Part shown: positions 3,404 through 20,000 of the stretch, piece after piece
Layout: each line of letters starts with the position of its first letter
How positions within the stretch are numbered: the stretch's first letter is position 1
IMG/VR virus record: IMGVR_UViG_3300042445_002545
From: an uncultured virus (IMG/VR IMGVR_UViG_3300042445_002545)
Taxonomy: Duplodnaviria; Heunggongvirae; Uroviricota; Caudoviricetes
Length of the DNA: 20,000 bases
Direction: 5' to 3' (one strand)
Program-made: the position numbers and the translations under genes
The notes under the pieces: model-generated
Seen by the model: only the letters and a program-made list of their open reading frames with translations
What the model was told of the DNA's origin: nothing
Databases searched by the model: none

Positions 3404-3994
3404 TTATTTTATAAATCCATCTTTATATAAAGTATGTAAATAAATTGAGTGCTCTACGCACATTTCTTTAGCTTTCATAACGCCAATTTCAAAATCGTCT
3501 GTTGTATAATCAACAGCTCTACCAATCGACATGTGTAATCCAAAATAAGGTTTACCTAACCCCAATTCTGAACGTATCATTTGTAATTCTTCTCTATCCT
3601 CATGTGGAATATTAAACCACCAGTGATAATCACTATTTGGTTCAGAAGAATCAGTTTTTGGTGATAGGTCTATTATAACCTCAATTTTTTTACCATTCCA
3701 TTTAGTTTTTATTTCTTCCCATTTACCATTCATATCTGAAGCTCTATCATTTATGAATGTTATATGAGCACCTCTTAATGGTTTATGCAACTTTAAATTA
3801 TATCGCTTCTTAAGAAACCACATATAGTATTCGCAAACATCACCAGGTATAACAACCATAGCTACTTTCTTCCAAGAAGATTGTTTGCTGTGTTTTAAAG
3901 TCTTATCTTCTGGGTCAAAAACTATTTTACCAGTTAACTTAACAGTATTAGTTTGCCAATTTGAATTTTGGTAAGAATTCTCTAAGGAATGCAT
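3404..3994 (-). CDS. 2H phosphoesterase family protein (start uncertain: 3994 or 4030)
   Basis: Two Hx[T/S] motifs, GAHITFI and GLHMSIG, about 80 aa apart. Either start overlaps the upstream gene. Confidence 0.7.
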   Translation of the reverse strand: MHSLENSYQNSNWQTNTVKLTGKIVFDPEDKTLKHSKQSSWKKVAMVVIPGDVCEYYMWFLKKRYNLKLHKPLRGAHITFINDRASDMNGKWEEIKTKWNGKKIEVIIDLSPKTDSSEPNSDYHWWFNIPHEDREELQMIRSELGLGKPYFGLHMSIGRAVDYTTDDFEIGVMKAKEMCVEHSIYLHTLYKDGFIK

Positions 3995-5274: not shown

Positions 5275-5479
5275 CTACAAATAAATTAGGGTTAGCTTCA
5301 ATCCAATCTATAATTGGTTTTTGAAACATCGCTCGAAAACCATGCATGTATAATACATCAGCAACAATGTGGAATTCTTCACCCATTGTGAATGTTAGTG
5401 GTTGTGGAACACCATTAAGTGTTACTTCCATAGCTTTCTTTAATCTGAAAACTTTATTCGAATATTTTACTCTGCTCAT
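5255..5479 (-). CDS. Hypothetical protein (74 aa)
   Basis: Overlaps both neighbours in operon fashion. Confidence 0.7.
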   Translation of the reverse strand: MSRVKYSNKVFRLKKAMEVTLNGVPQPLTFTMGEEFHIVADVLYMHGFRAMFQKPIIDWIEANPNLFVDDTRQF

Positions 5480-6534
5480 AATCCTACTAATTCATTTAAT
5501 TTTATTAAAAACATTTCTCTCGTTTTAGTTGAAATGTATTTATTTATTTCTTTGGGTTCAAGATTATTCTCAATCATGGTATCCATTTCTTCTTTGATAA
5601 CATCATTTACAACCCATCTAATTACGTCACCCATTTTCTTAACATCTAATGGTTCTTCATTAGGGAATACGTTTTCGATTGCTTGGTTAACACGACTTTC
5701 GGTAACCGAATATTCTACAAACTCTTTAATTGAGTTTAATTTTTCAACATCAACAGTTGCTAAGGTTTTAACTTTAGAGGAGCTATGTAATTCACCCTTC
5801 ACCTTGAACCTATGTACAACATTTTGAAATTCACAAGACCAAACGATACCTTCACCAATCCCTGAGAAGCCAAATGCTTTCGCTACAGGACATTCTTCCT
5901 CAACTGCAATAGTCAACTCGGATAATTGATTTTGAATCAACTGAGGCATGTTAAAATCGATATCAATTGAATACGTTTCATAATCATCGATATTGTAAAT
6001 TTTAACCTCTGGTGCTCTCAAGTATGTTGAATCAACCCAATAAGCTGGATTAGCTTTTAATTCTTCTTCAGTTTCAGTATGTGGTGTAATTTTAACACCA
6101 AATATGAAGAATGATTTAGGTAAGTTGGAAATACCAACACCTTTTTGAATATTACCACCAGCCCATTCACCATAAATACTAATAGTATTATTGTTTCTAT
6201 TAATATTTTCTTTTTCAGCAACATGTAACATTAAACCATAAAAAATATCCTTATTTGATTCCACAAAGAATGCAAATCCAGCGTTATCTTTTTCTGGTGT
6301 GATGATATTCTCACGAGATTGTGCCCACAAATCATCTTGACTATTATAAGAAACACCAGCATTAGTACCATGTAATTTTATAGTACCTTTAAAGGTTAAT
6401 ACTGGTTTAGGTAAATTTGGGTCATAAATCGCCTCACCATTTTCATCTAAACCAACAAAATTGTATCGTCTATTAACATTAGAAACAACAGTTCTAAATT
6501 GTTCAATAGACGGAAATTTAATCATTTTTTTCAT
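5476..6534 (-). CDS. RNA ligase, Rnl2-like
   Basis: Nucleotidyltransferase motifs I KLHGTN, III YGEWAG, IIIa FFIFGV, IV GEGIVW, V FKVK, plus helical C-terminal domain. Confidence 0.85.
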   Translation of the reverse strand: MKKMIKFPSIEQFRTVVSNVNRRYNFVGLDENGEAIYDPNLPKPVLTFKGTIKLHGTNAGVSYNSQDDLWAQSRENIITPEKDNAGFAFFVESNKDIFYGLMLHVAEKENINRNNNTISIYGEWAGGNIQKGVGISNLPKSFFIFGVKITPHTETEEELKANPAYWVDSTYLRAPEVKIYNIDDYETYSIDIDFNMPQLIQNQLSELTIAVEEECPVAKAFGFSGIGEGIVWSCEFQNVVHRFKVKGELHSSSKVKTLATVDVEKLNSIKEFVEYSVTESRVNQAIENVFPNEEPLDVKKMGDVIRWVVNDVIKEEMDTMIENNLEPKEINKYISTKTREMFLIKLNELVGL

Positions 6535-6544
6535 ATTTTTAAAA

Positions 6545-7933
6545 TTAATTTAAACCTTTTGCCATATTTTCAATTGCCATTATTGATTCCAAAGAATCGC
6601 ACGTATCTTTATCGTCACGTAGTTGTTTGAACACTGGGTGTAGCAACGCATAGTTACCATTTGAGTCATGTGATAATCCAGAACATTTAACTTCAATAAT
6701 TGTCCCCATCAAAGATTCTTGGTTTTCTGTGATATGTTGCATCAAGCTCTCATTCATACCAGTTGGTCTCGTAAATAATTTACCATCAGCTGATTCAGCA
6801 TTTACAGATGAGATTACATGCTCATTTTTACCTGTTCCATAGTTAAAACCAACAATACGTAAATCAACATCCATTTCCAACTTCATTTTTATTTGCCAAT
6901 TTGGTTTACCATCTTTCCATGTACCCTTTATATCTTTAAGAATAGTACCCTCTTGACCAGTAGCTAGTATATCTTGGAAATGTGACATAGCTTCATCATA
7001 TGTGTAAACCATAACCGCATCAACTATTGAAACCATAGATAACCCTTTAGTGTTAATTAAAATGCCAGCTTTATTAGCTCGGTTCAAATAAGGTACATCT
7101 GATTTTTTATCGAAATATTCATCAACAGTAATTGTATCCCAAATAGTGTATCTAATCGAGTTCAAAGCTGTTTCAAAGTTACCATGTTTTTCCTCAAAAG
7201 CTGCTAATTTTTTACCATTTTCGACTTCTGTTCTAGAATCTCTCTTACCACAAATATCAATAAGTGATGCAATGATACCATTAGATTCATAACGAGATAC
7301 ATTATCTATAGTTAACTCACCATTAAATACACAATCATCCAAAGATGATAATTCATCGATAAATTTAGCTCCAGTAACAATTGTTGGTTCGCCTTGACGA
7401 CTTTCTAATTCAACTTCACCACCACGAATGATTGCATTACAATAACGACCATCCATTTTAATTTGTGACACACCAACACCACCATTTTCGAATATTTTAC
7501 GAGCTTTCTTTTCATCAAAAGATACTGCACCCATATAAGGTGTATCTTCAATAAGTCCCTTGATTACTTTATTCATGTTTGAAGTACCCATACCGATTTT
7601 ACAATCTTTCTCAATAATTCGTTCGATGATATAAGCATTGTCAGAATCCACACTAGCCAACAAATCACGCAAGAAGTTAAGTGCATCACCACCAGTTACA
7701 TGTCTATCAATTATGTGTTGTAACTCACTAACTGCAAAATCTAATGAATTATTTTGGTTAGCATTCCTAGTATATGTTGGGAGTTGTTTAATATAAAACT
7801 TAATTCGTTTTGAATTAGCCAAATATAATACACGTTTCAATAATTCGTTGTCAGCGTATTTTCCTAAAATAACCATCTTTTGGTTAGTGCTACTCTCAGC
7901 AGCGATTTCATCAAAAATTTGTTTAATATTCAT
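6545..7933 (-). CDS. ATP-dependent DNA ligase
   Basis: QIKMDGRY, SRQG, FNGEL, IWD, EGTILK, IKMK and OB-fold ending LLHPVFKQLRDDK. Confidence 0.93.
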   Translation of the reverse strand: MNIKQIFDEIAAESSTNQKMVILGKYADNELLKRVLYLANSKRIKFYIKQLPTYTRNANQNNSLDFAVSELQHIIDRHVTGGDALNFLRDLLASVDSDNAYIIERIIEKDCKIGMGTSNMNKVIKGLIEDTPYMGAVSFDEKKARKIFENGGVGVSQIKMDGRYCNAIIRGGEVELESRQGEPTIVTGAKFIDELSSLDDCVFNGELTIDNVSRYESNGIIASLIDICGKRDSRTEVENGKKLAAFEEKHGNFETALNSIRYTIWDTITVDEYFDKKSDVPYLNRANKAGILINTKGLSMVSIVDAVMVYTYDEAMSHFQDILATGQEGTILKDIKGTWKDGKPNWQIKMKLEMDVDLRIVGFNYGTGKNEHVISSVNAESADGKLFTRPTGMNESLMQHITENQESLMGTIIEVKCSGLSHDSNGNYALLHPVFKQLRDDKDTCDSLESIMAIENMAKGLN

Positions 7934-7936
7934 AGC

Positions 7937-8173
7937 TTATTTTTTTACTGGTGGGTGATACATTTCTCTCATTTTTCTAATTATGAGAATGACATAAGCA
8001 TCATGTTCAGGTGAATTAATAGATGAATATAATGATTCTTTAATTTGAGTCCAATTATCATCATCCTCGTCTATAATTTCCATTTTAGCCTTTTCTTCAG
8101 CAGCTTTTCTAATTGCTTCAGTACCTTCTCTCATAGCAGCTTCAGCTCTTTCATTTTTCCAATCTTCACTCAT
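7937..8173 (-). CDS. Hypothetical protein (78 aa)
   Basis: Tightly packed, co-oriented ORF. Confidence 0.7.
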   Translation of the reverse strand: MSEDWKNERAEAAMREGTEAIRKAAEEKAKMEIIDEDDDNWTQIKESLYSSINSPEHDAYVILIIRKMREMYHPPVKK

Positions 8174-8175
8174 AA

Positions 8176-8685
8176 TTATACAGTTTCTAATTTATTAATA
8201 CCTAATAAAGTATCTAAGTGCTCCCACATTCTTTTACCATCAGACGGTGTATTCAAATATAGGGCACCTTTGAATTCTTGGTATTCTTTTGCATACATAT
8301 CAATCTTACCACCATGTTCAATGTTGGCAATTCTATCAGCCAATTTAAGAATAATTGCATCAGGGTTAGCAGATGTTTTAGGCAATGTTTTAACTTTTTT
8401 CTCTTTTCTAGTTCTACCTTGCTCATCAGTTACATCATAAACCATCTCAGCAACCTCAATACCAAAATGCTTTTTGATATCGTTGTATGATATACCATCA
8501 TCCTCTATGCTATCATGCAAATAGCCAGCAACAATATACTTTCCAGAGAAGCCAAATCTTTTTAAGACATCAACAACATCATCTAAGTGTTTTTCATAAG
8601 GAAAAATTTCATCATATGATTGATTAGAGTGTGCTTTAACCCCAACCATTCTAGCTTCTTTGTAAGTTTTTTCTGTATAGTTCAT
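8176..8685 (-). CDS. HD-domain small alarmone hydrolase (RelA/SpoT hydrolase, Mesh1-like)
   Basis: AHSNQ..PYEKH..V, AGYLHDSIED, VTD, LKLADRIAN motifs; no synthetase domain. Confidence 0.88.
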   Translation of the reverse strand: MNYTEKTYKEARMVGVKAHSNQSYDEIFPYEKHLDDVVDVLKRFGFSGKYIVAGYLHDSIEDDGISYNDIKKHFGIEVAEMVYDVTDEQGRTRKEKKVKTLPKTSANPDAIILKLADRIANIEHGGKIDMYAKEYQEFKGALYLNTPSDGKRMWEHLDTLLGINKLETV

Positions 8686-8687
8686 AT

Positions 8688-9122
8688 TTAATAATTTGTT
8701 TGCATTTTATGAATAATTAATTCACCTTCTTTATCATTTCTAACATCTAATTTTAGATAAGGTCTGTCAAATTGTAAATCATGGTCATATTCGTCAATAA
8801 CATTTGTATAAAAATCATCGTGACCCATAAGTATTGGTCTACGTCTTCCTTTACCTAAAACACCTTTTTTAGTTAGAAATAAGTTTTCTTCAATAAGTGT
8901 TGATAATCTATCTTCTAGATTAAGTATATCATTAGCAAATCTTGTCCTTAGATTTGTGAATTCTTCTTCGGTTGGTGCTGCTTCATGTAGTTCTCCCTTT
9001 CCACCACTTGTTCTATGGTTATCCACATAATTTTCTCTATTATATGGAATGTTATTAACTTCATTCACTAAAGCCTCTAAATCATATCTTACTGTTATCC
9101 CTAATACATTAATTGTTTTCAT
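8688..9122 (-). CDS. Hypothetical protein (144 aa; start revised to ATG 9122)
   Basis: The track's 9155 start lies inside the promoter at 9127-9158. Confidence 0.75.
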   Translation of the reverse strand: MKTINVLGITVRYDLEALVNEVNNIPYNRENYVDNHRTSGGKGELHEAAPTEEEFTNLRTRFANDILNLEDRLSTLIEENLFLTKKGVLGKGRRRPILMGHDDFYTNVIDEYDHDLQFDRPYLKLDVRNDKEGELIIHKMQTNY

Positions 9123-9126
9123 ATTA

Positions 9127-9158
9127 CAAATATACGAATAATATTTCAATTTCACAAA
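9127..9158 (-). promoter_or_regulatory. Bacteroidota sigmaA-type promoter
   Basis: TTTG(9158-9155)-N20-TATATTTG(9134-9127); heads the long minus-strand repair gene run. Confidence 0.82.
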
Positions 9159-9223
9159 TAAAATAATAAAATATTTTATTTTTTATTAAACCAAAAGATA
9201 TTTATTAATAAATCTATCAAAAC

Positions 9224-9544
9224 GTGAAAGTAAAATATATAATTAACAATTCTGATGAAGTATTAATTGGTCAAACAATAAACGGAAGTTTATCTATTAC
9301 AAATAACGTAACTGGTAAAACTGTTTATTCAGAATACTTTATTGGTGATGGTTCTCAATTGGGTGGGGTAGTTGGTTTAACTTATACTGAAATGGGTTTT
9401 ACCATAACATCACCAGCACCATCAACTATAAATCAAAATGTAGTTTTACCTTATAATTCAACAGTAACATACCCAACACCATTAACTATTGGTAGTGGTT
9501 TTAGTGTAGTGGTTTCAAGTGGAACTACTTTAACAATAATTTAA
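9224..9544 (+). CDS. Hypothetical beta-rich, probably structural protein (106 aa)
   Basis: GTG start, T/S/G/V/I-rich composition, directly upstream of the fibre-like gene. Confidence 0.7.
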   Translation: MKVKYIINNSDEVLIGQTINGSLSITNNVTGKTVYSEYFIGDGSQLGGVVGLTYTEMGFTITSPAPSTINQNVVLPYNSTVTYPTPLTIGSGFSVVVSSGTTLTII

Positions 9545-9562
9545 AATTTAAAATTAAAAAAA

Positions 9563-10675
9563 ATGAGTCAAATAAACGTAGACATTATCACACCAAATGT
9601 GACAACAAATTTAACATTAACAGCTCCTGTTCAACAGGGGAACACAACCGCTAGTGGTTCTGATTCATCATCATGGGGTAAAAGTACAGCCGCAATCGGA
9701 GATTCCTCTCATGCTGAAGGTAGTCAAACAACCGCAACTGGTGATGCATCGCATACTGAGGGTAGTTATACAGCTGCTAGTGGTGCTGATTCACACGCTG
9801 AAGGTGAAAGTACAACGGCTAGTGGTAGTGCATCACACGCTGAAGGTTATTTATCAATAGCTAGTGGTAATTATTCACATGCTGAAGGTAGAGCTACAAC
9901 TGCTAGTAAGTTGTATTCGCATGCTGAAGGTTATTTATCAATTGCTAGTGGTAACACATCACATGCTGAAGGTAGTAGTACAAGAGCTGGTGGTGATTCA
10001 TCACATGCTGAAGGTAAAGGTGCAATAGCTAATGGTGGTAGTTCGCATGCTGAAGGATTTGTTACAAGTGCACTTGGTGATAATTCTCATGCTGAAGGTA
10101 GATTAACATACGCTGGTGGTGATAATTCACATGCTGAAGGTGATACAACATATGCTATTTTTGCTAACTCACATGCTGAAGGTTATGCTACAACTGCTGA
10201 AGGTGAGGCATCACACGCTGAAGGATATGAAACAATAGCAAGTGGTATTAATTCACACGCTGAAGGTAGTAGAGCAATAGCAAGTGGTGCTAATTCACAT
10301 GCTGAAGGTAATGGTAGTGATGCTATTGGTCTTGCGTCACACGCTGAAGGTCAACAAACAACGGCTAGTGGTGACTATTCACATAGTGAGGGTAATTTAA
10401 CAATAGCTAGTGGTAGTTTTTCACATGCTGGCGGTACAAATTCAACTGCTAGTGGTCTTTCATCATTTGTACATTCATATAGTTCAACAGTTAGTGGTGC
10501 TAGAAGTGCAATTATCGGTGGTGCTGGTATTATTGGTACAGCGGATGATACAGTTTATGTTCCAAGTCTTGAAACTAACGTGGTTGGTGAAGGTGTAATA
10601 ATGAAAAGTCCAAATGGAACTAGATATAAAGTAACTGTTAGTGATGCTGGTGTATTAACTGTAGTTGCAGCTTAA
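9563..10675 (+). CDS. Tail-fibre/adhesin-like protein with about 18 tandem 14-aa SHAEG repeats
   Basis: xxxxASGxxSHAEG period-14 repeats (YadA-head-like beta-roll) and C-terminal MKSPNGTRYKVTVSDAGVL motif typical of phage fibres. Confidence 0.8.
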   Translation: MSQINVDIITPNVTTNLTLTAPVQQGNTTASGSDSSSWGKSTAAIGDSSHAEGSQTTATGDASHTEGSYTAASGADSHAEGESTTASGSASHAEGYLSIASGNYSHAEGRATTASKLYSHAEGYLSIASGNTSHAEGSSTRAGGDSSHAEGKGAIANGGSSHAEGFVTSALGDNSHAEGRLTYAGGDNSHAEGDTTYAIFANSHAEGYATTAEGEASHAEGYETIASGINSHAEGSRAIASGANSHAEGNGSDAIGLASHAEGQQTTASGDYSHSEGNLTIASGSFSHAGGTNSTASGLSSFVHSYSSTVSGARSAIIGGAGIIGTADDTVYVPSLETNVVGEGVIMKSPNGTRYKVTVSDAGVLTVVAA

Positions 10676-10696
10676 ACGTAATAAAAATAAATTAAT

Positions 10697-10726
10697 AAAA
10701 ACCACAGTTTTCTGTGGTTTTTTTTT
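10697..10726 (+). terminator. Intrinsic terminator, possibly bidirectional
   Basis: AAAA-ACCACAG-TTTT-CTGTGGT-TTTTTTTT between convergent genes. Confidence 0.85.
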
Positions 10727-10738
10727 GTTTAATACTTT

Positions 10739-10963
10739 TTATTCTTTATATCTAAGTTTATTGAGTAAAATTGTTGTTGATGATTCAGGTAACATACTTT
10801 CACCACCACGTAAACTTAGTACTTTTTCACCATTGGTGATGAACATCATTTGACCTTCTAACCCTTTAGTAGTTTTAACCAAAGTATCTCGATTACCATT
10901 TATAAGTATTAACTTATGTTTCTGTATTAGCTCAGCTAATTCTGTATAAAATTCTCTTGTCAT
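10739..10963 (-). CDS. Hypothetical protein (74 aa)
   Basis: Starts 2 nt after the RNA ligase stop codon. Confidence 0.7.
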   Translation of the reverse strand: MTREFYTELAELIQKHKLILINGNRDTLVKTTKGLEGQMMFITNGEKVLSLRGGESMLPESSTTILLNKLRYKE

Positions 10964-10965
10964 AA

Positions 10966-12084
10966 TTATAACATTTTATATAATGACTTATCGTCATAGT
11001 TTAACATATATTCATTTACTGATGGTATTTTACCATCAACTAATCCAAAGCACATTCCTGTGAAAGGTTTTAAATCATATTTATCACATAACTCAAATAC
11101 CTTAGCAGCATATCTCTTTTTTTCAGATGCTATTATACTATTAGGTTTATGCAACTTTAATTCTTCCCACAAAAACTTTAATCTATTAACCAAATCATCA
11201 TAACCTTCTTTTAATCTCAATAATTCATCTTTTCTATCTGGGAAAGTTGAAATGAATTCTTCAATTTCATTGGTTTTAACAATCACCATAATATTGTGTT
11301 CAGCAGTTTTACCTTTTAAGTGGTGAACGGCCAGGTAGGCTGGATTTTTGATTTTAACTCTATTGTCATCAGCATCTCTAACCACATAGCCTTCTTCAGA
11401 CCATGGCATGTTTTCAAATGTCTTGATTAATGTACCAGCATTCTTAGCATTTAAATCATAAGATTTAACCAATGGTATTCCTAATGATACCGAAACCATA
11501 AATAAATCATTGTATGGTATTTCTTTTAATGTTAATCTATTTCTAACAGCCAATAATTTAGATGATGATTCACCATGTGGTGTTACAACAATATTATATG
11601 GTGTTGTTAATTCAAAAACATATACATGGTCCTTATCTAATAGACAAGTGTTAAATGAATACTTTGAAATAACAGTGTCCCAAAATAATTCATTAAATGT
11701 TGTCCCGTATTTGTTATTAACTTCCCCTTCACCTTCAGCAGTACCCGTAGTTGCCGCAAACCAAATTTCTTTATGCCAATCCCAATAAACTTGAATCATT
11801 GTACCATCTTCTTTATTAAGAACATGTGCGGTATCCCAGTTTATTTTAGCCGCATGACCTTCAGCATTATTAAAAAACTTTCTAAATGCTAATGATATAA
11901 CTTTTAAAGTATCTTTCTCAAGGATAAGACCTCTACAATCCTTAACTTCTTCTAAGGACATATTAGACTCTATTTGATTGTATTTTAAAAGTATTTTGTG
12001 TTCATACTCTTTCACTATCAATTTAAACTCTGAAACAGCTTTATTAAGCCCATTTTTATTTATGTATTCTACTATTGCTAACAT
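10966..12084 (-). CDS. RNA ligase, T4 Rnl1-like
   Basis: N-terminal LLKY..CRGLIL..AFRKFFN, motif I KEDGT, VFEL..PYNIVV, EEGYVV, RVKIKNPAYL. Confidence 0.9.
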   Translation of the reverse strand: MLAIVEYINKNGLNKAVSEFKLIVKEYEHKILLKYNQIESNMSLEEVKDCRGLILEKDTLKVISLAFRKFFNNAEGHAAKINWDTAHVLNKEDGTMIQVYWDWHKEIWFAATTGTAEGEGEVNNKYGTTFNELFWDTVISKYSFNTCLLDKDHVYVFELTTPYNIVVTPHGESSSKLLAVRNRLTLKEIPYNDLFMVSVSLGIPLVKSYDLNAKNAGTLIKTFENMPWSEEGYVVRDADDNRVKIKNPAYLAVHHLKGKTAEHNIMVIVKTNEIEEFISTFPDRKDELLRLKEGYDDLVNRLKFLWEELKLHKPNSIIASEKKRYAAKVFELCDKYDLKPFTGMCFGLVDGKIPSVNEYMLNYDDKSLYKML

Positions 12085-12102
12085 ACTTTAATTATTTATT
12101 GA

Positions 12103-12134
12103 CAAATATACATAAAAAAAAGGTAACCACCAAA
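12103..12134 (-). promoter_or_regulatory. Bacteroidota sigmaA-type promoter for the Rnl1 gene
   Basis: TTTG(12134-12131)-N20-TATATTTG(12110-12103). Confidence 0.82.
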
Positions 12135-12147
12135 TGATTACCTTTTT
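12114..12147 (-). terminator. Intrinsic terminator overlapping the Rnl1 promoter
   Basis: AAAAAGGTAA...TTACCTTTTT inverted repeat with T-runs, downstream of the secreted-protein gene. Confidence 0.65.
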
Positions 12148-12166
12148 ATTTTTACTTTATTTTTAA

Positions 12167-13240
12167 TTATCTATAAATTCTTTCAGTTGTACCATCAGTA
12201 TAGTGAACAATTAAGTTACCTTTAACATCATCATTTACAATTTGACCTAATAAATTCGTAAAGTATAAGACTTCTTTTGTTTTACCAAGATTGTTAAGGC
12301 TTATTGTCTTAAAAGTTTCTGATTGACCGTCAATATCTACCTGGGTTAATCTATAATAATTAATTGCTGCTTCATAAGTGAAGTCTCTGAAACTATAATC
12401 AATTTTAGATGTGGAATTACCAGCACCGTTCTGATTATTGACTACAGACCAATTAAACCCGTCTGTGGAACGTTCTACTAAATAATAATCATTATTATGT
12501 TCAGTTGCACTTGACCAGGTTAATAAATTATAAGTATTTTGGTTAGTAGCATCAAAATTAATCAATTCAATAGGTAATGAATATACTCGAATCAATTCAA
12601 AATTATCAAACCACCATTCTTCACCATCTGAATTAACCCTTGAAGGAATTTCGAATCTTAATTGGGTTACCCCTATGGGTAATGTTAATTCTATGATAGA
12701 GTAACCATCACCCGTTGATGTTCTATCCCCACCAGCAATTGGTGAATATATTGTCATTAACCCATTAGCGATTTTAGATGCAATAGCATTAGTGTTATAA
12801 TTCCATAAAGTACCACCGCTGCCATTTGGATTAATACCCGTTATTCTCATTTCAGTTTTCCATGAAGTCCCATTATTTGAACTATATCGAACATCAAAAT
12901 AATCAGGCGAATCAGTACCAGCAGTTATTGCAGTAGGGTTATTGATTTTATAGGACCCAGCTCTAAATTTAAACATGTAGGTTGATGTAGAACTTAAACC
13001 TGTTATATTGGTTAGGCTATATGTTCCAGATTCAACATTAGAACCCCCATTACCTGAACCAATTAATGCAGCGCTAGATGTTGATGAAACAAACACATTT
13101 GTAGAATACCAACAAGGTCCACATCCAACGCCCCATCCACCTGACCAATTCCCAGTCTCAATATAATTATACGCTATTAATGTTTGACCATATGATAATG
13201 TATTTAATAATAAAAATAATGATAATAATAATCTTTTCAT
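12167..13240 (-). CDS. Secreted Bacteroidota-type beta-sandwich protein with LPIELxxF Ig-like domain and CTD-like tail
   Basis: Signal peptide MKRLLLSLFLLLNTLSYG followed by Q; LPIELINFDA..LTWSSATEHNNDYYLVERSTDG..YYRLTQVDIDG; C-terminal NLLGQ..YTDG. Start 13240 preferred over 13258. Confidence 0.8.
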   Translation of the reverse strand: MKRLLLSLFLLLNTLSYGQTLIAYNYIETGNWSGGWGVGCGPCWYSTNVFVSSTSSAALIGSGNGGSNVESGTYSLTNITGLSSTSTYMFKFRAGSYKINNPTAITAGTDSPDYFDVRYSSNNGTSWKTEMRITGINPNGSGGTLWNYNTNAIASKIANGLMTIYSPIAGGDRTSTGDGYSIIELTLPIGVTQLRFEIPSRVNSDGEEWWFDNFELIRVYSLPIELINFDATNQNTYNLLTWSSATEHNNDYYLVERSTDGFNWSVVNNQNGAGNSTSKIDYSFRDFTYEAAINYYRLTQVDIDGQSETFKTISLNNLGKTKEVLYFTNLLGQIVNDDVKGNLIVHYTDGTTERIYR

Positions 13241-13290
13241 AAGTTTGTGTTTTATCATAAATATAACACAAATTCATAAAAAAATAAATA

Positions 13291-13590
13291 CTATTTATTT
13301 CTATCTTTTAAGATTTTTATTAATTTTTCAAGTTCTGAAAAACTTAAATCACCAAGTAATCCCATTATTTCACTTTCTTCCATCATTTTCTTAGCAGCTA
13401 TCATACTGCACATTTCAGAAAATATATGCATATCATTTTCATCATATATTAATGAGCTAATAAAGATTATAAAATTACCAATAGTGCTAATTACATAATC
13501 TTGTTTATCTTCACCTTCCATTATCAAGGCTTCACCTATCTTTAGTAGTTTAATAGATAACTCATCATATCTTTCCATATTATCTTCCAT
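13291..13590 (-). CDS. Hypothetical protein (99 aa)
   Basis: Co-oriented ORF; no motif recognised. Confidence 0.7.
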   Translation of the reverse strand: MEDNMERYDELSIKLLKIGEALIMEGEDKQDYVISTIGNFIIFISSLIYDENDMHIFSEMCSMIAAKKMMEESEIMGLLGDLSFSELEKLIKILKDRNK

Positions 13591-13623
13591 CGATTCTTTT
13601 TTGTAAAAATATGAGTTTTTTTA

Positions 13624-14100
13624 TTAATCGACAACAAACCAATCAGGTTTTTTTCTATTTTTCCAGTCAGCTAAGCTTTTTTTATGTGTCATATAGTATA
13701 ATCTATATGAATCAACGACTGAATCGATTTTACAATCATCTGGCATGGCCATAGCAAAGTTTGTTATATCACCATTGGTTGGTATATTTGGTGTGTTTAT
13801 CAGGCACCATTCAATAACATCCTGAGATTTGTGTCTTTTACCATAACGATATGTATATTCCTCACATAATGACATACCCAAATCACACAACCAAATATAA
13901 TTTTCAATACACTCCCTGGTCCAAATTGAACATGGGTGATTTTTATGTGATAACTTATACGGTATTAGATATTGGCTATCAGTTACATGATGAACACCGC
14001 ATAATAATTGAGCCGTTTCCAATATCATCTTAACTACATGTTTATTATTGTGCATTTGCGCAGCAACTTGTGGATTTTCATCTAGAACAAAAATATTCAT
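13624..14100 (-). CDS. Pyrimidine-dimer DNA glycosylase / endonuclease V-like protein
   Basis: MNIFVLD..HVVKMILETAQLL, HKNHPCSIW, EYTYRYGKRHKS, AMPD, YRLYY. Confidence 0.82.
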   Translation of the reverse strand: MNIFVLDENPQVAAQMHNNKHVVKMILETAQLLCGVHHVTDSQYLIPYKLSHKNHPCSIWTRECIENYIWLCDLGMSLCEEYTYRYGKRHKSQDVIEWCLINTPNIPTNGDITNFAMAMPDDCKIDSVVDSYRLYYMTHKKSLADWKNRKKPDWFVVD

Positions 14101-14102
14101 AT

Positions 14103-15038
14103 TTATTTTTTTATTTCAGTAACTTTTCCAATAACGTTGAATGGTTTTATTTTTCTCCATTCAGTAATATCATTACTCATAACAGCTTTACCACCATTTG
14201 GGTTAACAGCTATTGTGATGTGTGGTGTTGCATTTTTAGTTGGGTAACCCTCAACTTTAACAGCCATAGCCATATCAGATAACCCCAATTCCGTAACTTT
14301 AAGTGTTATATCTTTACCTAAATCTTCTTTGTTCGGTACTGGTTTACCAAATACAATTGTCATATGGTGTGTGATTATACTCCAACCATCTGGAATTTCA
14401 TTTTCAACCCTAGATAATAGTGAACTTCTAGAACCACCATCTAAAACAACAGCAGAATATAATACATCAGATTCTTTATACATATCTTTTGAACCCATAA
14501 CACTAGCAACACTTAATGGGCCTTGACCAGCGTGACTAGCTATCATTGATTCAATCTTTTCCAATGGAACACCATGAGTATTCCTATCAGCTAATTCTTG
14601 TGCTGATAACCCACCAGTACCAATATCAACAAATTGAATGTTTTTATCATCCAATCCCAAATCCAATGCTGATTTAACAGCAACTTTAGATTCGTTTTGT
14701 TTAATATTTGTATTATCTAAGATAACTGGTGATGCACCACTTTTTAATGAATTGGTAAGATTGGTAAGATTTGTTGAATGCGCTTTAGATAAAGGACTAA
14801 AGTCTTTAGTTGTAATCATCTTTTCGAAGAATTCCCTGTAATCACCTTGAGCTTCAATAACATCATCTGTTGAATGAATAATACCATCAGTACCAGCTAA
14901 TTCTTTTGCTTTTGTTGATTTACCAGAACCTGGAATTCCCCTCATTACAATAAGTACCTGGTCTGGTCTAGTAATAGTTACACCTAATGAATTTTTAAGC
15001 GTACCTTCTCTTAATATAGATTTAATTTTATCTTTCAT
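14103..15038 (-). CDS. Polynucleotide kinase (P-loop) fused to a 2H cyclic phosphodiesterase; RNA end-healing enzyme
   Basis: MRGIPGSGKST, STDD, ILDNTN, RNTHGVP (N4BP2/CNPase-like kinase), then HHMTI and PHITI 2H motifs. Confidence 0.87.
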   Translation of the reverse strand: MKDKIKSILREGTLKNSLGVTITRPDQVLIVMRGIPGSGKSTKAKELAGTDGIIHSTDDVIEAQGDYREFFEKMITTKDFSPLSKAHSTNLTNLTNSLKSGASPVILDNTNIKQNESKVAVKSALDLGLDDKNIQFVDIGTGGLSAQELADRNTHGVPLEKIESMIASHAGQGPLSVASVMGSKDMYKESDVLYSAVVLDGGSRSSLLSRVENEIPDGWSIITHHMTIVFGKPVPNKEDLGKDITLKVTELGLSDMAMAVKVEGYPTKNATPHITIAVNPNGGKAVMSNDITEWRKIKPFNVIGKVTEIKK

Positions 15039-15805: not shown

Positions 15806-16183
15806 TTATTTTTTAGGTTTTGTTTTTAACTTAATAAGTTTCTTTTTTGCTATTGGTTTCTTTTTAACTTTTTTCTTAATTTTAGCTTTTCTAGTGAAAC
15901 CACCAATACCACCAACCTTAAGATTCATGCATTTACCATTCTTAACTTTAGATAATGTAACAATAGCTCTTTCCCTCTCAGCTAATAATTCTCGACTTTC
16001 AACTATTTCTAAAATATCAACTCTATGTTTTTCTTTACCATATCTTTTTATTGAAAATTTTATTGCTTTACCAGAACCCATATAACCATCTTCCAGATTA
16101 TCGGTTGAATGCATACCAATATAATATTTGTTATTAACTAAACATGTTGTTTTGTATATGATATGATATTTTTTTTCATTCAA
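15806..16183 (-). CDS. GIY-YIG endonuclease (Seg-like) with Lys-rich tail
   Basis: IIYKTTCLVNNKYYIGMH, YMGSG, conserved Glu, CMNLKVGG; TTG start. Confidence 0.82.
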   Translation of the reverse strand: MNEKKYHIIYKTTCLVNNKYYIGMHSTDNLEDGYMGSGKAIKFSIKRYGKEKHRVDILEIVESRELLAERERAIVTLSKVKNGKCMNLKVGGIGGFTRKAKIKKKVKKKPIAKKKLIKLKTKPKK

Positions 16184-16192
16184 TGGTGTATT

Positions 16193-16837
16193 CTAATCGT
16201 TAAATAAGTTAGTTTTAATTATAAAATTTTCAGCTAATTCCATTATTTTATTTTGAATATCTTCTGGTAACTCATCAAATATTGAATCAATATCAATACT
16301 TTGACCATCTAATGTTTCAAATTTGTTTAATTGTTCATAATATCTAATGATATCACCAGAGGTTAGTTTGATTTTTTTAAACCTATCTTTGTTTGGTTGC
16401 ACTTGTGGTGGTTGTTGTTCTTTACCAGTAACATAAAGAATTTGGTTTGATGTAGCAAAATCCTTTTTTCTCATAATGGTTTTACTTATTAAATCTAACT
16501 CACCATTTTCCTTATCCCAACTTATAGTAAACGGGATATTAATATTTGTTGGGTTATTTTTAAATACAGCCTCAAAACCATCTTTATATTTAATTAACTG
16601 CTCTTTGTATTGTGAATAAATCTTTTTAAAGATATCCCTAAGTTCTTCAATTGTAATTTCCTTACCATTTCTAACATCATTCACCCTATCCAAAAAATGT
16701 TTTGTAAATTCAATATCAACACCAACACTTTTAAATAAATTATCTAATTCAATTTCTAATTTACCAAGCTGAGATGATGTGACGTAATCTTCTCTTAAAA
16801 GACTTTCCCTTAATAATTTTTTAATTAATGATTTCAT
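16193..16837 (-). CDS. Hypothetical phage protein with FTKHFLDRV motif (possible RelE/BECR-like domain)
   Basis: IEFTKHFLDRVND...INIPF...KTIMRK; fold assignment tentative. Confidence 0.7.
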   Translation of the reverse strand: MKSLIKKLLRESLLREDYVTSSQLGKLEIELDNLFKSVGVDIEFTKHFLDRVNDVRNGKEITIEELRDIFKKIYSQYKEQLIKYKDGFEAVFKNNPTNINIPFTISWDKENGELDLISKTIMRKKDFATSNQILYVTGKEQQPPQVQPNKDRFKKIKLTSGDIIRYYEQLNKFETLDGQSIDIDSIFDELPEDIQNKIMELAENFIIKTNLFND

Positions 16838-16887
16838 ATATTATAAATATCATTAAAAAATTAAAAATTTGACATATTAGTAAATAG

Positions 16888-16972
16888 CGGAGAGTGTGGG
16901 ATTCGAACCCACGGACCCCTTTCAGGGCCACGGTTTAGCAAACCGCTCCATTAACCACTCTGGCAACTCTCC
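16888..16972 (-). tRNA. trnS: tRNA-Ser(GCT)
   Basis: GGAGAGT/ACTCTCC acceptor, loop TTGCTAA, long variable arm, TTCGAAT, G73. Confidence 0.95.
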
Positions 16973-16977
16973 GATTG

Positions 16978-17050
16978 TACCCCTACAGGGATTCTAACCC
17001 CGATTAAGCCCTTAGAAGGGGCTGGTCCTATACAGTTGAACGATAGGGGC
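16978..17050 (-). tRNA. trnR: tRNA-Arg(TCT), non-canonical elbow
   Basis: GCCCCTA/TAGGGGT; AGCCC-CTTCTAA-GGGCT; D-loop AACTGTATA; T-loop TTAGAAT. Confidence 0.88.
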
Positions 17051-17061
17051 ATATTATGCAG

Positions 17062-17135
17062 TGACCACGGTAGGATTCGAACCTACAGCCTCCGCAGTCG
17101 TAATGCGGTGCGCTATCCAGTTGCGCCACGTAGCC
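17062..17135 (-). tRNA. trnR: tRNA-Arg(ACG)
   Basis: GGCTACG/CGTGGTC; CCGCA-TTACGAC-TGCGG; canonical D and T arms. Confidence 0.95.
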
Positions 17136-17165
17136 ATAATTGTAATATTTTTGATGTGATTAGTG

Positions 17166-17235
17166 TACCGCCTGTGAGGTTCGAACTCACCTTTCCATCC
17201 ATATGAGGGATAGTTGTACTCCACTGACTAGCGGC
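17166..17235 (-). tRNA. Atypical tRNA with CAT anticodon (Met or Ile2), degenerate D arm
   Basis: GCCGCT/GGCGGT acceptor (6 bp), TATCC-CTCATAT-GGATG, GTGAG-TTCGAAC-CTCAC; D stem poorly formed. Confidence 0.7.
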
Positions 17236-17237
17236 AT

Positions 17238-17348
17238 TTTGGTCGATGTCTAGAATCTTTAACCTCCTTTCTTGGCAAGGTCTCCATCATGGGTTCCGTT
17301 GATTGATTCATCTTTATAACCCCATACGGAACAAGCGGGGTAACCAAA
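17238..17348 (-). ncRNA. Candidate pseudoknotted structured RNA, family unknown
   Basis: Closing TTTGGTT/GACCAAA stem; crossing helices ACCCC/GGGGT and GTTCCGT/ACGGAAC; GC-richer than ordinary spacers. Confidence 0.45.
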
Positions 17349-17356
17349 TTATTTTG

Positions 17357-17430
17357 CTCTTCAGGAGGGATTCGAACCCCCAACCCATCGGTTAACAACC
17401 GATTGCTCTGACCATTATAGCTACCGAAGA
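17357..17430 (-). tRNA. trnN: tRNA-Asn(GTT)
   Basis: TCTTCGG/CTGAAGA, ATCGG-TTGTTAA-CCGAT, G73. Confidence 0.95.
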
Positions 17431-17435
17431 ATAAA

Positions 17436-17505
17436 AAAGTTTAGAGGCTTTGGGTTAGACACGCCTCAATATTACATGAGAGACCCCATAGATTGCATAA
17501 ACTTT
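17436..17505 (-). ncRNA. Candidate three-way-junction RNA in a tRNA spacer
   Basis: AAAGTTTA/TAAACTTT closing stem, GAGGC/GCCTC hairpin, possible TGGG/CCCA loop-loop pairing. Confidence 0.35.
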
Positions 17506-17506
17506 G

Positions 17507-17583
17507 TACAGAAGGTGAGATTCGAACTCACATGTGACCAACTACCCTTTCTACAAGATATAAGCTTGAGGGGATACATCTGC
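17507..17583 (-). tRNA. Topologically rearranged tRNA-like RNA, anticodon TAT (Ile, AUA reader)
   Basis: GCAGATG/CTTCTGT acceptor, perfect T arm, CAAG-CTTATAT-CTTG hairpin only 8 nt after the acceptor strand; D-loop-like AGTTGGTCA lies 3' of the anticodon arm. Confidence 0.65.
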
Positions 17584-17586
17584 ATT

Positions 17587-17637
17587 TTTATAAGTGGCCA
17601 AAACTATGTTTTTTAGTGAGTTTTGGCACCTTATAAA
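17587..17637. repeat. Inverted repeat / spacer hairpin
   Basis: TTTATAAG..GCCAAAACT pairs with AGTTTTGGC..CTTATAAA. Confidence 0.7.
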
Positions 17638-17640
17638 TTG

Positions 17641-17714
17641 TAGGAAACACGGGACTCGAACCCATAACCTCTTCGGTATCAGCGAAGTGCTCTAACCAGT
17701 TGAGCTAGCTTCCT
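17641..17714 (-). tRNA. trnI: tRNA-Ile(GAT)
   Basis: AGGAAGC/GTTTCCT, CTTCG-CTGATAC-CGAAG, A73. Confidence 0.95.
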
Positions 17715-17733
17715 ATTGTGAGTGGAAGCCATA

Positions 17734-17928
17734 TTACTTCCACTTTGTTTTTCTGTTGTGTTTCCACGTTTTAAATTCTCTCCATTTATGATTTGGTAGA
17801 TTACGGTGGCTCCAATTCCACCCATAATCCCATATGTTATAACCATAAATGTTCATCCATCGAATACAATTGTATTCTTTAGAAGTTTTTGCTTTGTTCA
17901 GTTTTGCTCTGTTAATTTTTTTACTCAT
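17734..17928 (-). CDS. Small basic Trp-rich protein (64 aa) inside the tRNA array
   Basis: MSKKINRAK...WKHNRKTKWK; ATG 17928 preferred because the upstream extension runs through a hairpin. Confidence 0.65.
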   Translation of the reverse strand: MSKKINRAKLNKAKTSKEYNCIRWMNIYGYNIWDYGWNWSHRNLPNHKWREFKTWKHNRKTKWK

Positions 17929-17998
17929 AATGTTGTGAGTCTGTGAATAGCAGACCTTACAACATATCAAATACCTTTTTCATAAATTTTATTTTTAG

Positions 17999-18085
17999 AG
18001 GAGAAGGAGAGATTCGAACTCTCGGAACCCTTTCAGGTCCACTGGTTTTCAAGACCAGCACCATAAACCACTCGGACACTTCTCC
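17999..18085 (-). tRNA. trnS: tRNA-Ser(TGA)
   Basis: GGAGAAG/CTTCTCC, CTGGT-CTTGAAA-ACCAG, long variable arm; discriminator is T. Confidence 0.95.
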
Positions 18086-18096
18086 ATTTTTAAATA

Positions 18097-18190
18097 ATAA
18101 GGCTACAGCCTTATAATGTTATAATATAAGGCTACAGCCTTATAACCTTATAACGTTATAATATAACCTTATAACCTTATAACGTTATAT
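18097..18190. repeat. Degenerate tandem repeat of 8-mers (CCTTATAA, CGTTATAA, GGCTACAG)
   Basis: ATAAGGCTACAGCCTTATAA at 18097 and 18126; CCTTATAACCTTATAACGTTATA at 18138 and 18167 (29-nt offsets). Confidence 0.85.
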
Positions 18191-18193
18191 TAG

Positions 18194-18264
18194 CACGAGT
18201 GGAGAGGTTCGAACTCCCTACGGCAAGGTTTTGGAGGCCCGCCCGCCCCTAGGCTGTCACTCGT
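18194..18264 (-). tRNA. trnW: Atypical tRNA-Trp(CCA) with reduced D arm
   Basis: ACGAGTG/CACTCGT, loop CTCCAAA, GGGAG-TTCGAAC-CTCTC, G73; D arm only GCC-TAGG-GGC; mismatched anticodon stem. Confidence 0.72.
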
Positions 18265-18277
18265 GTGTTTTACTTAC

Positions 18278-18293
18278 CAATATGTCAAAGAAC
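18278..18293 (-). promoter_or_regulatory. boxA-like antitermination element GTTCTTTGACATATTG
   Basis: Resembles rrn boxA (TGCTCTTTAACA) and the form I recall from Bacteroidota rrn spacers; on the transcribed strand near the 5' end of the array. Confidence 0.6.
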
Positions 18294-18300
18294 CTTTGTT

Positions 18301-18384
18301 GGTGTCTGACGGGAATTGAACCCGCATGTCGTAAGACCCCTGTTTCACAGACAGGTGTGGCAAACTAATATCCACCTCAGACAC
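18301..18384 (-). tRNA. trnH: tRNA-His(GTG) with long variable arm
   Basis: GTGTCTG/CAGACAC plus C73; CCTGT-CTGTGAA-ACAGG; 13-nt variable region containing GTC-TTAC-GAC. Confidence 0.85.
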
Positions 18385-18386
18385 AG

Positions 18387-18460
18387 CTCCCCCACCTGGA
18401 CTCGAACCAGGGACCCACGCATTAACAGTGCGTTGCTCTAACCAACTGAGCTACAGGGGA
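18387..18460 (-). tRNA. trnN: tRNA-Asn(GTT)
   Basis: TCCCCTG/TGGGGGA, ACGCA-CTGTTAA-TGCGT, canonical arms, G73. Confidence 0.96.
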
Positions 18461-18630
18461 ATGTTAATTGTGACAAATATTGTTACTTTGCCACCCTTCT
18501 TTTCAAATTTAAGATTACCGTTGTAACCCATTTCTTTTGCTTTCGCATTGTATTCGTCATAAATCTTATCGAAGTTCTTTTGGAAGTCTGAGACTTTTAC
18601 AGTTCCTAATGTTCTTACTAATTTTTCCAT
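18451..18630 (-). CDS. Hypothetical protein (59 aa), first gene after the attenuator
   Basis: ATG at 18630 with A-rich upstream (MEKLVRTLG...); stop codon falls 10 nt inside tRNA-Asn. Confidence 0.65.
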   Translation of the reverse strand: MEKLVRTLGTVKVSDFQKNFDKIYDEYNAKAKEMGYNGNLKFEKKGGKVTIFVTINIPL

Positions 18631-18644
18631 AATTTTTATGACAT

Positions 18645-18677
18645 AAAAAAACCCAACTCTATTTCTAGGTCGGGTTT
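18645..18677 (-). terminator. Attenuator terminator (3:4 hairpin)
   Basis: AAACCCGAC-CTAGAAATAGA-GTTGGG-TTTTTTT between the promoter and the tRNA array. Confidence 0.85.
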
Positions 18678-18700
18678 CTGATTTTATTAAATTCTTATTT

Positions 18701-18799
18701 TTAGAACTCAATGATATCGCTGAACATACCAGACCTAGTTTGTAGACTATTACGTCTCCAATTACTAATCGACATTCTATGTATGTTATTTGTTATCAT
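18701..18799 (-). CDS. Putative attenuator leader peptide MITNNIHRMSISNWRRNSLQTRSGMFSDIIEF (32 aa)
   Basis: ATG after A-rich AAATAAAAAAAACACA; codons 4-18 match the array anticodons; overlaps the alternative hairpins. Confidence 0.8.
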   Translation of the reverse strand: MITNNIHRMSISNWRRNSLQTRSGMFSDIIEF

Positions 18800-18835
18800 T
18801 GTGTTTTTTTTATTTGTGTATTAATTAAATATATG

Positions 18836-18867
18836 CAAATATACTAAAAGTTTTTTTATTTGTCAAG
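18836..18867 (-). promoter_or_regulatory. Bacteroidota sigmaA-type promoter of the leader/tRNA operon
   Basis: CTTG(18867-18864)-N20-TATATTTG(18843-18836). Confidence 0.78.
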
Positions 18868-18888
18868 TTTTTTTAAAAATATTTTTAT

Positions 18889-19665
18889 TTACCAAGTTTT
18901 ATACATTGTTAATTCGTACCTACCACTAGGCATTCTGTAGATTGATACACGTATATATCTATTAGCTTCTTTACCTCTTTTATCCAGGATTGGTTCTCCA
19001 TTCTGTAATAATGGGATATTTGCTGACTTCTCAGTTTCATATGATATTCCACCAGTACCAAAATTAGTCCAAATTGTCTGCTCATCAACTTCAAACCCTA
19101 ATTGCGCTGCTTTTTGTCTAACAGCATCCAATACTTCACTTAAAGTTTCAAAGTATGTATCATTACCATCTTCATGTAAACTACTCTGAGCACCCTTAAC
19201 AATAGAATCAGCAAAACTTGGTTTACTAAATTGACTTTCTACATTATCTTCATCGATACCCATTTCACCCATTCTAATACCCCTTGGTTGAGATTCGTCA
19301 TCTTCAGTTGGGTTAGTAATTGCCTTTACTGAGAATAAATAAATATCACTTAAACGGAAATTTTCATTAAATCGGTCAGCAGCTTTTGCTTCAGCTTCTT
19401 CTTCGTTATTAGCTGTTATTTCATAAACCCAACGGTGTTTGTAACCACCATCTTTTTCAGCTTCTTTACCTATAACTTCAACCTTATAAGTGTTTTCACT
19501 ATTTAATTCTTCTTGGTCAATTTCTGGGTTAATACCGTATTCTTGTTTTCTACTTTCTAAGTCCCAATCTTCATTTTCATTAATTAAACCCTTAGATTGT
19601 AGGTATCTTTGTTCAGCTAATAAATTAGCTTTTCTAATATTGTCTTTTTTATCAAATCTTCTCAT
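18889..19665 (-). CDS. Acidic hypothetical phage protein (258 aa)
   Basis: Long ORF with basic N-terminus ending GLINE and C-terminal domain with YRMPSGRYEL. Confidence 0.8.
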   Translation of the reverse strand: MRRFDKKDNIRKANLLAEQRYLQSKGLINENEDWDLESRKQEYGINPEIDQEELNSENTYKVEVIGKEAEKDGGYKHRWVYEITANNEEEAEAKAADRFNENFRLSDIYLFSVKAITNPTEDDESQPRGIRMGEMGIDEDNVESQFSKPSFADSIVKGAQSSLHEDGNDTYFETLSEVLDAVRQKAAQLGFEVDEQTIWTNFGTGGISYETEKSANIPLLQNGEPILDKRGKEANRYIRVSIYRMPSGRYELTMYKTW

Positions 19666-20000
19666 TACAATAAGTTTCTAAACATTTCGTCAATTTTCCA
19701 TTTAGGCATATCTAAATCCATGCTGAATAAAATATTTCTTATTTTCTCTTCTTCTTCTCTTTGTTCGTTAACATAACCTAGAGCAAATGAATATGTATCA
19801 TTGTCATCTTCACCTTTAGCTTTATTAGCAATATCGTTCCAATTCTTAGTAACTTTCATTTCATGCTCTAACGCTTTTGCAACAACGTCTCTAACGTTAT
19901 TAAAGTTAACTGGAACATTTTTAACATTAGGTACAATTGCTTTAGCATTTTTTTCATAAAGATATGTGTATATTTTTGACATATGACCTAATTCTTCATC
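19665..20000 (-). CDS. ftnA: Ferritin (non-heme type), 5' part outside the window
   Basis: Frame open to the window edge: DEELGH, ALEHEMKVT, DNDTYSF, YVNEQREEE ferroxidase motifs. Confidence 0.85.
   Translation of the reverse strand, partial: DEELGHMSKIYTYLYEKNAKAIVPNVKNVPVNFNNVRDVVAKALEHEMKVTKNWNDIANKAKGEDDNDTYSFALGYVNEQREEEEKIRNILFSMDLDMPKWKIDEMFRNLL

Follow-up and report, generated by a model that had tools for sequence, protein, structure and literature searches.

The stretch examined here (the window) comprises 20,000 nucleotides (nt) from an uncultured virus of the class Caudoviricetes (IMG/VR record IMGVR_UViG_3300042445_002545) and carries an array of transfer RNA (tRNA) genes, which is preceded by a short open reading frame (ORF), the leader, and by an intrinsic terminator. 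All elements of this leader-tRNA locus lie on the minus strand (Table 1) and, as judged from their sequences, they probably make up a phage tRNA operon headed by a ribosome-mediated (leader-peptide) transcription attenuator. The locus follows a 258-codon ORF that ends at 18889 (minus strand). Its promoter (18866..18838) scored 11 of 12 matches and ranked at the top of 15 promoter-like sites found in 16000-20000, and its -10-like hexamer continues into a TAnnTTTG-type block (18843..18836) that is nearly invariant in an alignment of 27 leaders. The TAnnTTTG motif is linked to Bacteroidota promoters. Taken alone, the motif shows no enrichment in the window (38 occurrences against 35 expected), and a promoter pattern with a 19-nt spacer misses the leader promoter, where the spacing is 20. 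The -35 region of this promoter is tandemly duplicated (window 18845-18900), with two 27-nt copies that are 85% identical and lie 29 nt apart. An A-rich stretch separates the promoter from the leader ORF. The terminator hairpin (approximately -12 kcal/mol, followed by 7 T) begins 25 bases past the leader stop; the rule-based terminator scan, which applies a simple rule, returned no entry for it. The preliminary description of this DNA had listed a promoter, a 32-codon ORF and an intrinsic terminator, and all three were found on the minus strand at the places where it had put them. Absent from that account was the conserved 59-codon ORF between the terminator and the first tRNA, for which no Pfam or PHROG family was matched.

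Table 1. Features of the leader-tRNA locus and of the downstream nucleic acid repair genes in the window.
Feature	Position	Strand	Description
Promoter	18866..18836	-	TTGACA, 17 nt, TATATT; -35-like hexamer 18866..18861, -10-like hexamer 18843..18838
Leader ORF	18799..18701	-	32 codons plus stop
Control codons 4-18	18790..18746	-	all code for Asn, Ile, His, Arg, Met, Ser or Trp
Region 1	18787..18759	-	5' strand of the leader hairpin, inside the control codons; predicted to pair with region 2 when ribosome-free
Region 2	18739..18727	-	predicted antiterminator strand, codons 21-25; complementary to the terminator 5' arm
Intrinsic terminator (regions 3 and 4)	18675..18645	-	5' arm 18675..18666, loop 18665..18662, 3' arm 18661..18651, T run 18651..18645
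59-codon ORF	18630..18451	-	first gene behind the terminator, start 14 bases past it; last 10 nt overlap tRNA-Asn; conserved
tRNA array	18460..16887	-	nine genes by ARAGORN: Asn-GTT, His-GTG, Ser-TGA, Ile-GAT, Asn-GTT, Met-CAT, Arg-ACG, Arg-TCT, Ser-GCT
Atypical Trp-CCA-like gene	~18264..18192	-	uncalled by ARAGORN and Rfam in the window
Weak tRNA-like gene	17583..17507	-	Rfam 27.4 bits, cut-off 29
Polynucleotide-kinase-like ATPase	14103-15038	-	Pfam/PHROG; weak tRNA-ligase phosphodiesterase match
Rnl1-like RNA ligase	10966-12084	-	Pfam/PHROG
ATP-dependent DNA ligase	6545-7933	-	Pfam/PHROG
Rnl2-like RNA ligase	5476-6534	-	Pfam/PHROG

The array had been described as holding 11 tRNA genes. Nine of them were called by ARAGORN, and eight array tRNAs scored above the Rfam threshold, with ARAGORN's Met-CAT gene missed. 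The remaining two are atypical, as the Trp-CCA-like gene was uncalled and the other one stays below the threshold. Part of the latter is 81% identical to the Met-CAT gene, and its putative TAT anticodon is our own reading of the sequence. The Trp-CCA-like gene occupies the same place as a called tRNA-Trp in four relatives and has an invariant anticodon loop and T arm in common with them. Between this gene and the tRNA-Ser gene lies an AT-rich block of overlapping direct repeats (window 18075-18185, units 8 and 29 nt apart). The array also encloses a 64-codon ORF (17734-17928, minus strand) rich in Trp, Lys and Asn, with no Pfam or PHROG family matched.

Codons 4-18 of the leader are exactly the 15 codons that the preliminary description had listed. 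With its set of 18 codons readable by the array, the 25,189-base contig holds no longer in-set run in any of its six frames, and the next in length has 9 codons, or 10 if TCT is admitted. The set accounts for 0.309 of all codon positions and for 0.297 of those in ORFs of at least 150 amino acids, and approximately 0.0008 runs of 15 or more codons are expected on the contig, which bears out the claim that such a run is very unlikely by chance. Codon choice points the same way. TCG makes up 3% of the Ser codons in the genes of the contig, yet all 19 twelve-codon forms found among the relatives presented below have it at codon 10. Similarly, TCT and TCC together account for 26% of the Ser codons in genes, whereas the control regions of 22 unique leaders, with 68 Ser codons, have neither. 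The codon choice of the control region is unlike that of the genes and fits a sensor.

A search with a 19-base pattern taken from the leader core led to 35 viral contigs carrying the same leader family (family A), from records of up to 368 kilobases (kb). The leader frame is open in all 35, with 30-33 codons, and three of them also have an in-frame upstream ATG (41-42 codons). A hairpin with a T run follows 22-29 nt past the stop in all 36 leaders (35 contigs and the window), with several different stem sequences. tRNAs lie downstream in 33 of the 35 contigs; in one of the other two (L018), the locus stops 689 nt past the leader. Out of 308 tRNAs called, 302 belong to Asn, His, Trp, Ser, Ile, Met or Arg; the rest are one Ala tRNA and five of undetermined identity. 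Trp-CCA was called in most relatives. The protein encoded upstream of the locus is found in five viral contigs; in four of them (L001-L004) the promoter, leader, terminator and small ORF can all be aligned, and in the most distant one (L005) the leader core only is alignable at the DNA level (84%). When the cultured-phage collection was searched at the DNA level with 16000-20000, only tRNA and homing-endonuclease pieces matched, and no close relative was found.

Codons 13-18 are fixed by the search pattern, so variation was judged on codons 4-12 only. Among the 19 twelve-codon forms, 11 of the 13 variant codons still code for one of the seven amino acids of the array (single-base-neighbor null of 0.47, P = 0.006), and both out-of-set variants come from one locus. 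Substitutions include exchanges among Arg, Met and Ile and between Asn and Ile, and one position alternates between AGT or AGC and TCG, always coding for Ser. Judged by their sequence, such replacements would be radical for a protein and neutral for a sensor. The 19 N-terminal residues of the leader are well conserved; strong divergence sets in after approximately codon 20, and the C-terminal third is highly variable. Changes in leader length come as whole codons.

The large records showed that the leader of the window is one of several kinds. Five of them carry 22-65 tRNA genes each, arranged in several clusters. We scanned for terminators with a tRNA within 1 kb downstream and with an ORF of 20-43 codons whose end lies no more than 45 nt upstream, and this led to 15 modules of four kinds in four jumbo-phage records and the window. 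Type A, to which the window belongs, has arrays of Asn, His, Trp, Ser, Ile, Met and Arg tRNAs; type B of Gln, Lys, Pro, Gly, Tyr and Thr; type C1 of Cys, Val and Leu; and type C2 of Phe, Glu, Asp and Ala. Jointly, the four types cover all 20 amino acids. Leader residues 2-20 (19 positions) were then scored against the amino-acid set of the array. In the four jumbo-phage records, leaders of types A and B have 17-18 of 19 residues in the set of their own array, and the leader of the window has 15 of 19 against the nine tRNAs that ARAGORN called there. Leaders of the small sets (Cys/Leu/Val and Phe/Glu/Asp/Ala) score 9-11 of 19 with their own arrays, and for any leader against the other arrays of the same genome the score is 0-6 of 19. 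Each amino acid of an array is present in its own leader with four exceptions, namely the oddly called His-ATG and Gln-CTG of one type C2 module (G001), a TGA-reading tRNA of another (G003) and Trp in the window, where ARAGORN did not call the tRNA. Leaders of different arrays have similar promoters, 5' regions and first few residues, which indicates that the modules are paralogues whose control runs diverged together with their arrays. tRNAs with stop-reading anticodons were also seen in relatives (L044 3367-3442, L047 5805-5880 and L052 1578-1651), one with TCA in a Phe/Glu/Asp/Ala array and the others with CTA elsewhere; they hint at stop-codon suppression or recoding in these phages.

Two distant genomes present the same organization. 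LR745206.1, an uncultured phage of 634,780 bp with 61 tRNA matches, divides its tRNAs differently, into His/Phe/Trp/Lys, Arg/Ser, Glu/Tyr, Ile/Gly/Met, Asn/Arg/Leu/Val/Ile/Thr/Met, Pro/Asp and Gln alone. All seven arrays are preceded by a short ORF and a terminator, and each ORF has a run rich in the residues of its array. Residues 2-20 of the leader of the seven-amino-acid array fall wholly within the set, the leader of the Gln array has a run of Gln codons, and the true pairing of leaders and arrays is the single best among all 5040 permutations. The second genome is that of Cellulophaga phage phi4:1 (NC_021788.1, 145,865 bp), a cultured phage whose host is Cellulophaga baltica, and it carries three matching modules. 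Two of the leaders came from the rule-based scan, while the third is our own reading of gp075 (3990-4109, TTG start); gp075 is annotated as a hypothetical protein and the other two leaders are unannotated. The check that had been suggested for the locus, co-variation of leader codon content with array content, was thus passed by the paralogous modules, by the 635-kb phage and by the Cellulophaga phage. The 59-residue product of the small ORF had a single, weak tblastn match in LR745206.1, located in a region without tRNA or leader, and a scan of genome contigs with the same protein gave two matches only, of 17-18 residues, from which no host could be called. The near-invariant TAnnTTTG block and the presence of the same system in a Cellulophaga phage hint towards Bacteroidota as hosts of the window phage.

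The leader RNA has the pairings expected of a switch. Compared with shuffled sequences, the minimum free energy fold of the 200-nt leader region is strong (z = -4.52, none of 200 shuffles as good), consisting of a long hairpin within the ORF and the terminator. In the ribosome-free fold of the window, region 2 is paired to codons 6-12 over 12 of its 13 nt. The duplex predicted between region 2 and the terminator 5' arm reaches -15.6 kcal/mol in the window. Within family A (27 unique leaders), cognate duplexes average -13.2 kcal/mol and non-cognate ones -9.3 kcal/mol, and among 29 modules that have distinct arms, whatever their kind, the means are -12.1 and -7.9 kcal/mol, respectively, with none of 100,000 permutations as low as the true pairing. 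In 14 of the 15 modules, the segment that best complements the 5' arm immediately follows the control run, at codons 17-28. In the exception (type A of G004) it lies at codons 11-16, and at codons 21-24 once the search is restricted to the part past codon 16.

The position of a ribosome was represented by folding the nascent RNA from the front edge of the ribosome to the terminator loop, that is, with everything 5' of the edge removed and at a stage that precedes synthesis of the 3' arm. Throughout the 15 modules, the 5' arm finds an upstream partner with the A site at up to codon ~15-22 (17-19 in most), and this antiterminator pairing is gone by codons ~18-24; some modules regain 1-8 nt of upstream pairing at later codons. 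The switch is sharp and falls at approximately the end of the control run. An intrinsic terminator stands between leader and array in all 22 modules analyzed, and in 20 of these the ribosome-free fold has region 2 held by the control-codon segment and the terminator formed.

Computationally, the locus has an ORF with clustered codons, a terminator, an antiterminator, a 1:2 sequestration and control codons matched to the products of the operon. These parts, their conservation, their covariation and the match between leader and array can be read in the sequences themselves, and the parts together with the covariation fit the classical four-segment attenuator. We infer from them that the leader is translated, that ribosome and polymerase are coupled and in which direction the switch responds. 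Transcription would begin at the promoter and a ribosome would translate the 32-codon leader. When all control codons 4-18 are read fast, the ribosome would move on to cover region 2, the terminator would form and transcription would stop at 18645. When charged tRNA is scarce for any control codon, the ribosome would wait there with the 1:2 hairpin melted and region 2 free, and region 2 would capture the terminator 5' arm before the 3' arm is made, allowing read-through into the 59-codon ORF and the array. Because the run holds codons for all seven amino acids of the array, the leader would act as an OR-gate over the whole set, and because the products of the operon are the very tRNAs that would be sensed, the circuit should shut itself off at adequate supply (product feedback). 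Demand-driven or feedback control of tRNA operons is our best reading of these sequences.

Several observations weigh against this reading. With ARAGORN's nine tRNAs alone, the run in the window shrinks to 7 codons, since it breaks at ATA and TGG, or to 10 at the amino-acid level, and the count of 15 leans on two atypical genes among the 11 tRNAs. By itself, therefore, the codon run of the window is suggestive and depends on these two genes, and the comparison with other contigs does away with this dependence. Codon 3 (Thr) is conserved yet outside the set. The first residues are common to leaders of different arrays, and the Asn, Asn, Ile at the start of the run in the window may belong to a shared prefix rather than to the sensor. 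The leader families are paralogous, and independent origins may be fewer than the number of modules. One relative (L037, leader 1239-1337) has a leader and a terminator with no tRNA called in ~4 kb downstream. A different ORF stands behind the terminator in that contig, and the leader module may have moved in front of other genes. TAnnTTTG motifs also occur inside the array (18511..18504 and 17606..17599), and given these, internal promoters are possible there. Finally, once the 3' arm is present, the terminator is favored at equilibrium in most modules. Switching on thermodynamic grounds was set aside for this reason, and antitermination, like that of the classical attenuators, would need to be kinetic.

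Among the alternatives, the one that survives best keeps the whole architecture and changes the trigger. According to it, the leader would respond mainly to host tRNAs that are cut by anticodon nucleases or depleted, as a counter-defense, and not mainly to homeostatic feedback. The genes past the array on the same strand (window 5476-15038) look like an RNA repair set, with a kinase-like ATPase, Rnl1-like and Rnl2-like ligases resembling a tRNA repair kit; together with the DNA ligase they make tRNA damage a plausible concern for this phage. An OR-gate design would also suit the unpredictable loss of a single tRNA. The attenuated arrays, on the other hand, span all 20 amino acids, which is more like general supply control than a nuclease-specific response. 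We consider such a primary trigger possible and on the whole rather unlikely. Product feedback on the phage's own tRNA output and cleavage of host tRNAs, the trigger initially put forward, fit the evidence equally well, and the homeostatic and counter-defense roles are not mutually exclusive.

The other explanations give up codon-specific sensing. The leader could be a general sensor of translation status, reporting any ribosome behind the polymerase (coupling or host shut-off) with codon identity irrelevant, and the 1:2, 2:3, 3:4 architecture would indeed answer any stall. This would leave unexplained why leaders are spelled in the amino acids of their own arrays in 15 plus 7 plus 3 modules, as well as the in-set variants, and we find it improbable. 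Slightly less probable still is a small protein gene with a leaky terminator, whose peptide acts in trans while the array is transcribed by read-through or from internal promoters, with no sensing. The well-conserved 19 N-terminal residues, the similar start of leaders of different arrays and the possible internal promoter motifs would agree with it, whereas the highly variable C-terminal third, the replacements radical for a protein, the composition that tracks the array in every module and the complement to its own terminator in each leader would not. The weakest of these explanations, a non-coding structured leader (small RNA or precursor-processing signal) with an incidental ORF, could draw on the strong fold (z = -4.52) and on a weak, sub-threshold Rfam small RNA match over the terminator (22.8 bits, cut-off 38, E = 0.71), and is very hard to reconcile with a frame open in 35 of 35 relatives, with length changes in whole codons, with the AGT to TCG switch that stays Ser and with the amino-acid content that fits the arrays. 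The mobile promoter/stem-loop cassettes of T4-type phages were set aside since they leave the array-matched ORFs unexplained.

The leader-peptide attenuator is a mechanism of known kind. Multivalent examples control enterobacterial amino-acid operons, such as ilvGMEDA (Ile, Leu, Val), ilvBN and thr (Thr, Ile), and others are found in trp, his, leu and pheA; the leu leader uses a rare CUA control codon. The phage leader has in common with them a short translated ORF (predicted here), clustered control codons, an intrinsic terminator and exclusive 1:2, 2:3 and 3:4 pairings, as well as read-through upon a stall in region 1 (likewise predicted), several amino acids per leader and a rare control codon (TCG in this case). 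It differs in that the regulated genes are tRNAs and not biosynthetic enzymes, so that the sensed molecules would be the operon's own products, in that up to seven amino acids are represented in one leader, and in its viral and modular character, with one leader per array. The Rfam leader families (Trp, His, Thr, Leu and similar) gave no match at E up to 1 in 16000-20000, and the phage leader is unrelated in sequence to the enterobacterial ones. In pheST of Escherichia coli (phenylalanyl-tRNA synthetase, with the pheM leader), leader-peptide attenuation likewise controls a gene of the translation apparatus; pheST is cellular, with one amino acid and a protein product, while the phage leader is viral. 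T-box riboswitches also attenuate transcription by reading the state of specific tRNAs and control genes of tRNA charging and supply. In contrast to the phage leader, in which the conserved element is an ORF, a T-box binds one uncharged tRNA directly via a specifier codon without translation, and the T-box Rfam model had no match at E up to 1 in 16000-20000.

Phage T4 carries a tRNA cluster together with Pnkp/Rnl1, which repair tRNA cleaved by the anticodon nuclease PrrC, and like the window phage it has its own tRNAs near polynucleotide-kinase and RNA-ligase genes. We know of no leader-peptide control of the T4 tRNA cluster and, to our knowledge, little has been described of how phages regulate the tRNAs that they carry. 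In the literature searched by title and abstract, with subscription journals outside the coverage, no account of leader-peptide attenuation of tRNA genes was found, and within the main text of PMC7162821 "attenuat-", "leader" and "terminator" do not occur. The novelty of the system lies in its target, its product-sensing logic, its degree of multivalency and its modular viral deployment. If the proposed control is real, tRNA genes under attenuation would be a first in the literature searched, no known leader would be as multivalent (up to seven amino acids in a single one), and the sorting of the arrays by amino acid in these phages would have an explanation.

Tentatively, and as a possibility short of a probable one, we suggest that large Bacteroidota phages run a modular network of decoding capacity, in which a few operons, each with a codon-matched attenuator, divide among them the tRNAs for all 20 amino acids. 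Such a phage would gauge translation per codon set and make the block of tRNAs that is in short supply, including after destruction of host tRNAs, and the network would then be an inducible counter-defense as well as a homeostat. The module also offers a signature by which small "hypothetical" ORFs within tRNA regions can be annotated from sequence, gp075 of phi4:1 being an example. The cultured phage-host pair opens the way to direct experiments on whether phage tRNAs offset the loss of host tRNAs and whether their supply is tuned to demand, and a module so compact (promoter, leader of ~30 codons and terminator) could serve as a codon-specific reporter of translation speed.

Two further genes of the window deserve mention. 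A 475-residue protein (1875-3302, minus strand) combines PAS domains with a histidine-kinase-type ATPase domain, a sensor-kinase-like gene that is unusual for a phage. Among the ligase genes and on the opposite strand (9563-10675, plus strand), a 370-residue protein with YadA-head repeats is encoded.

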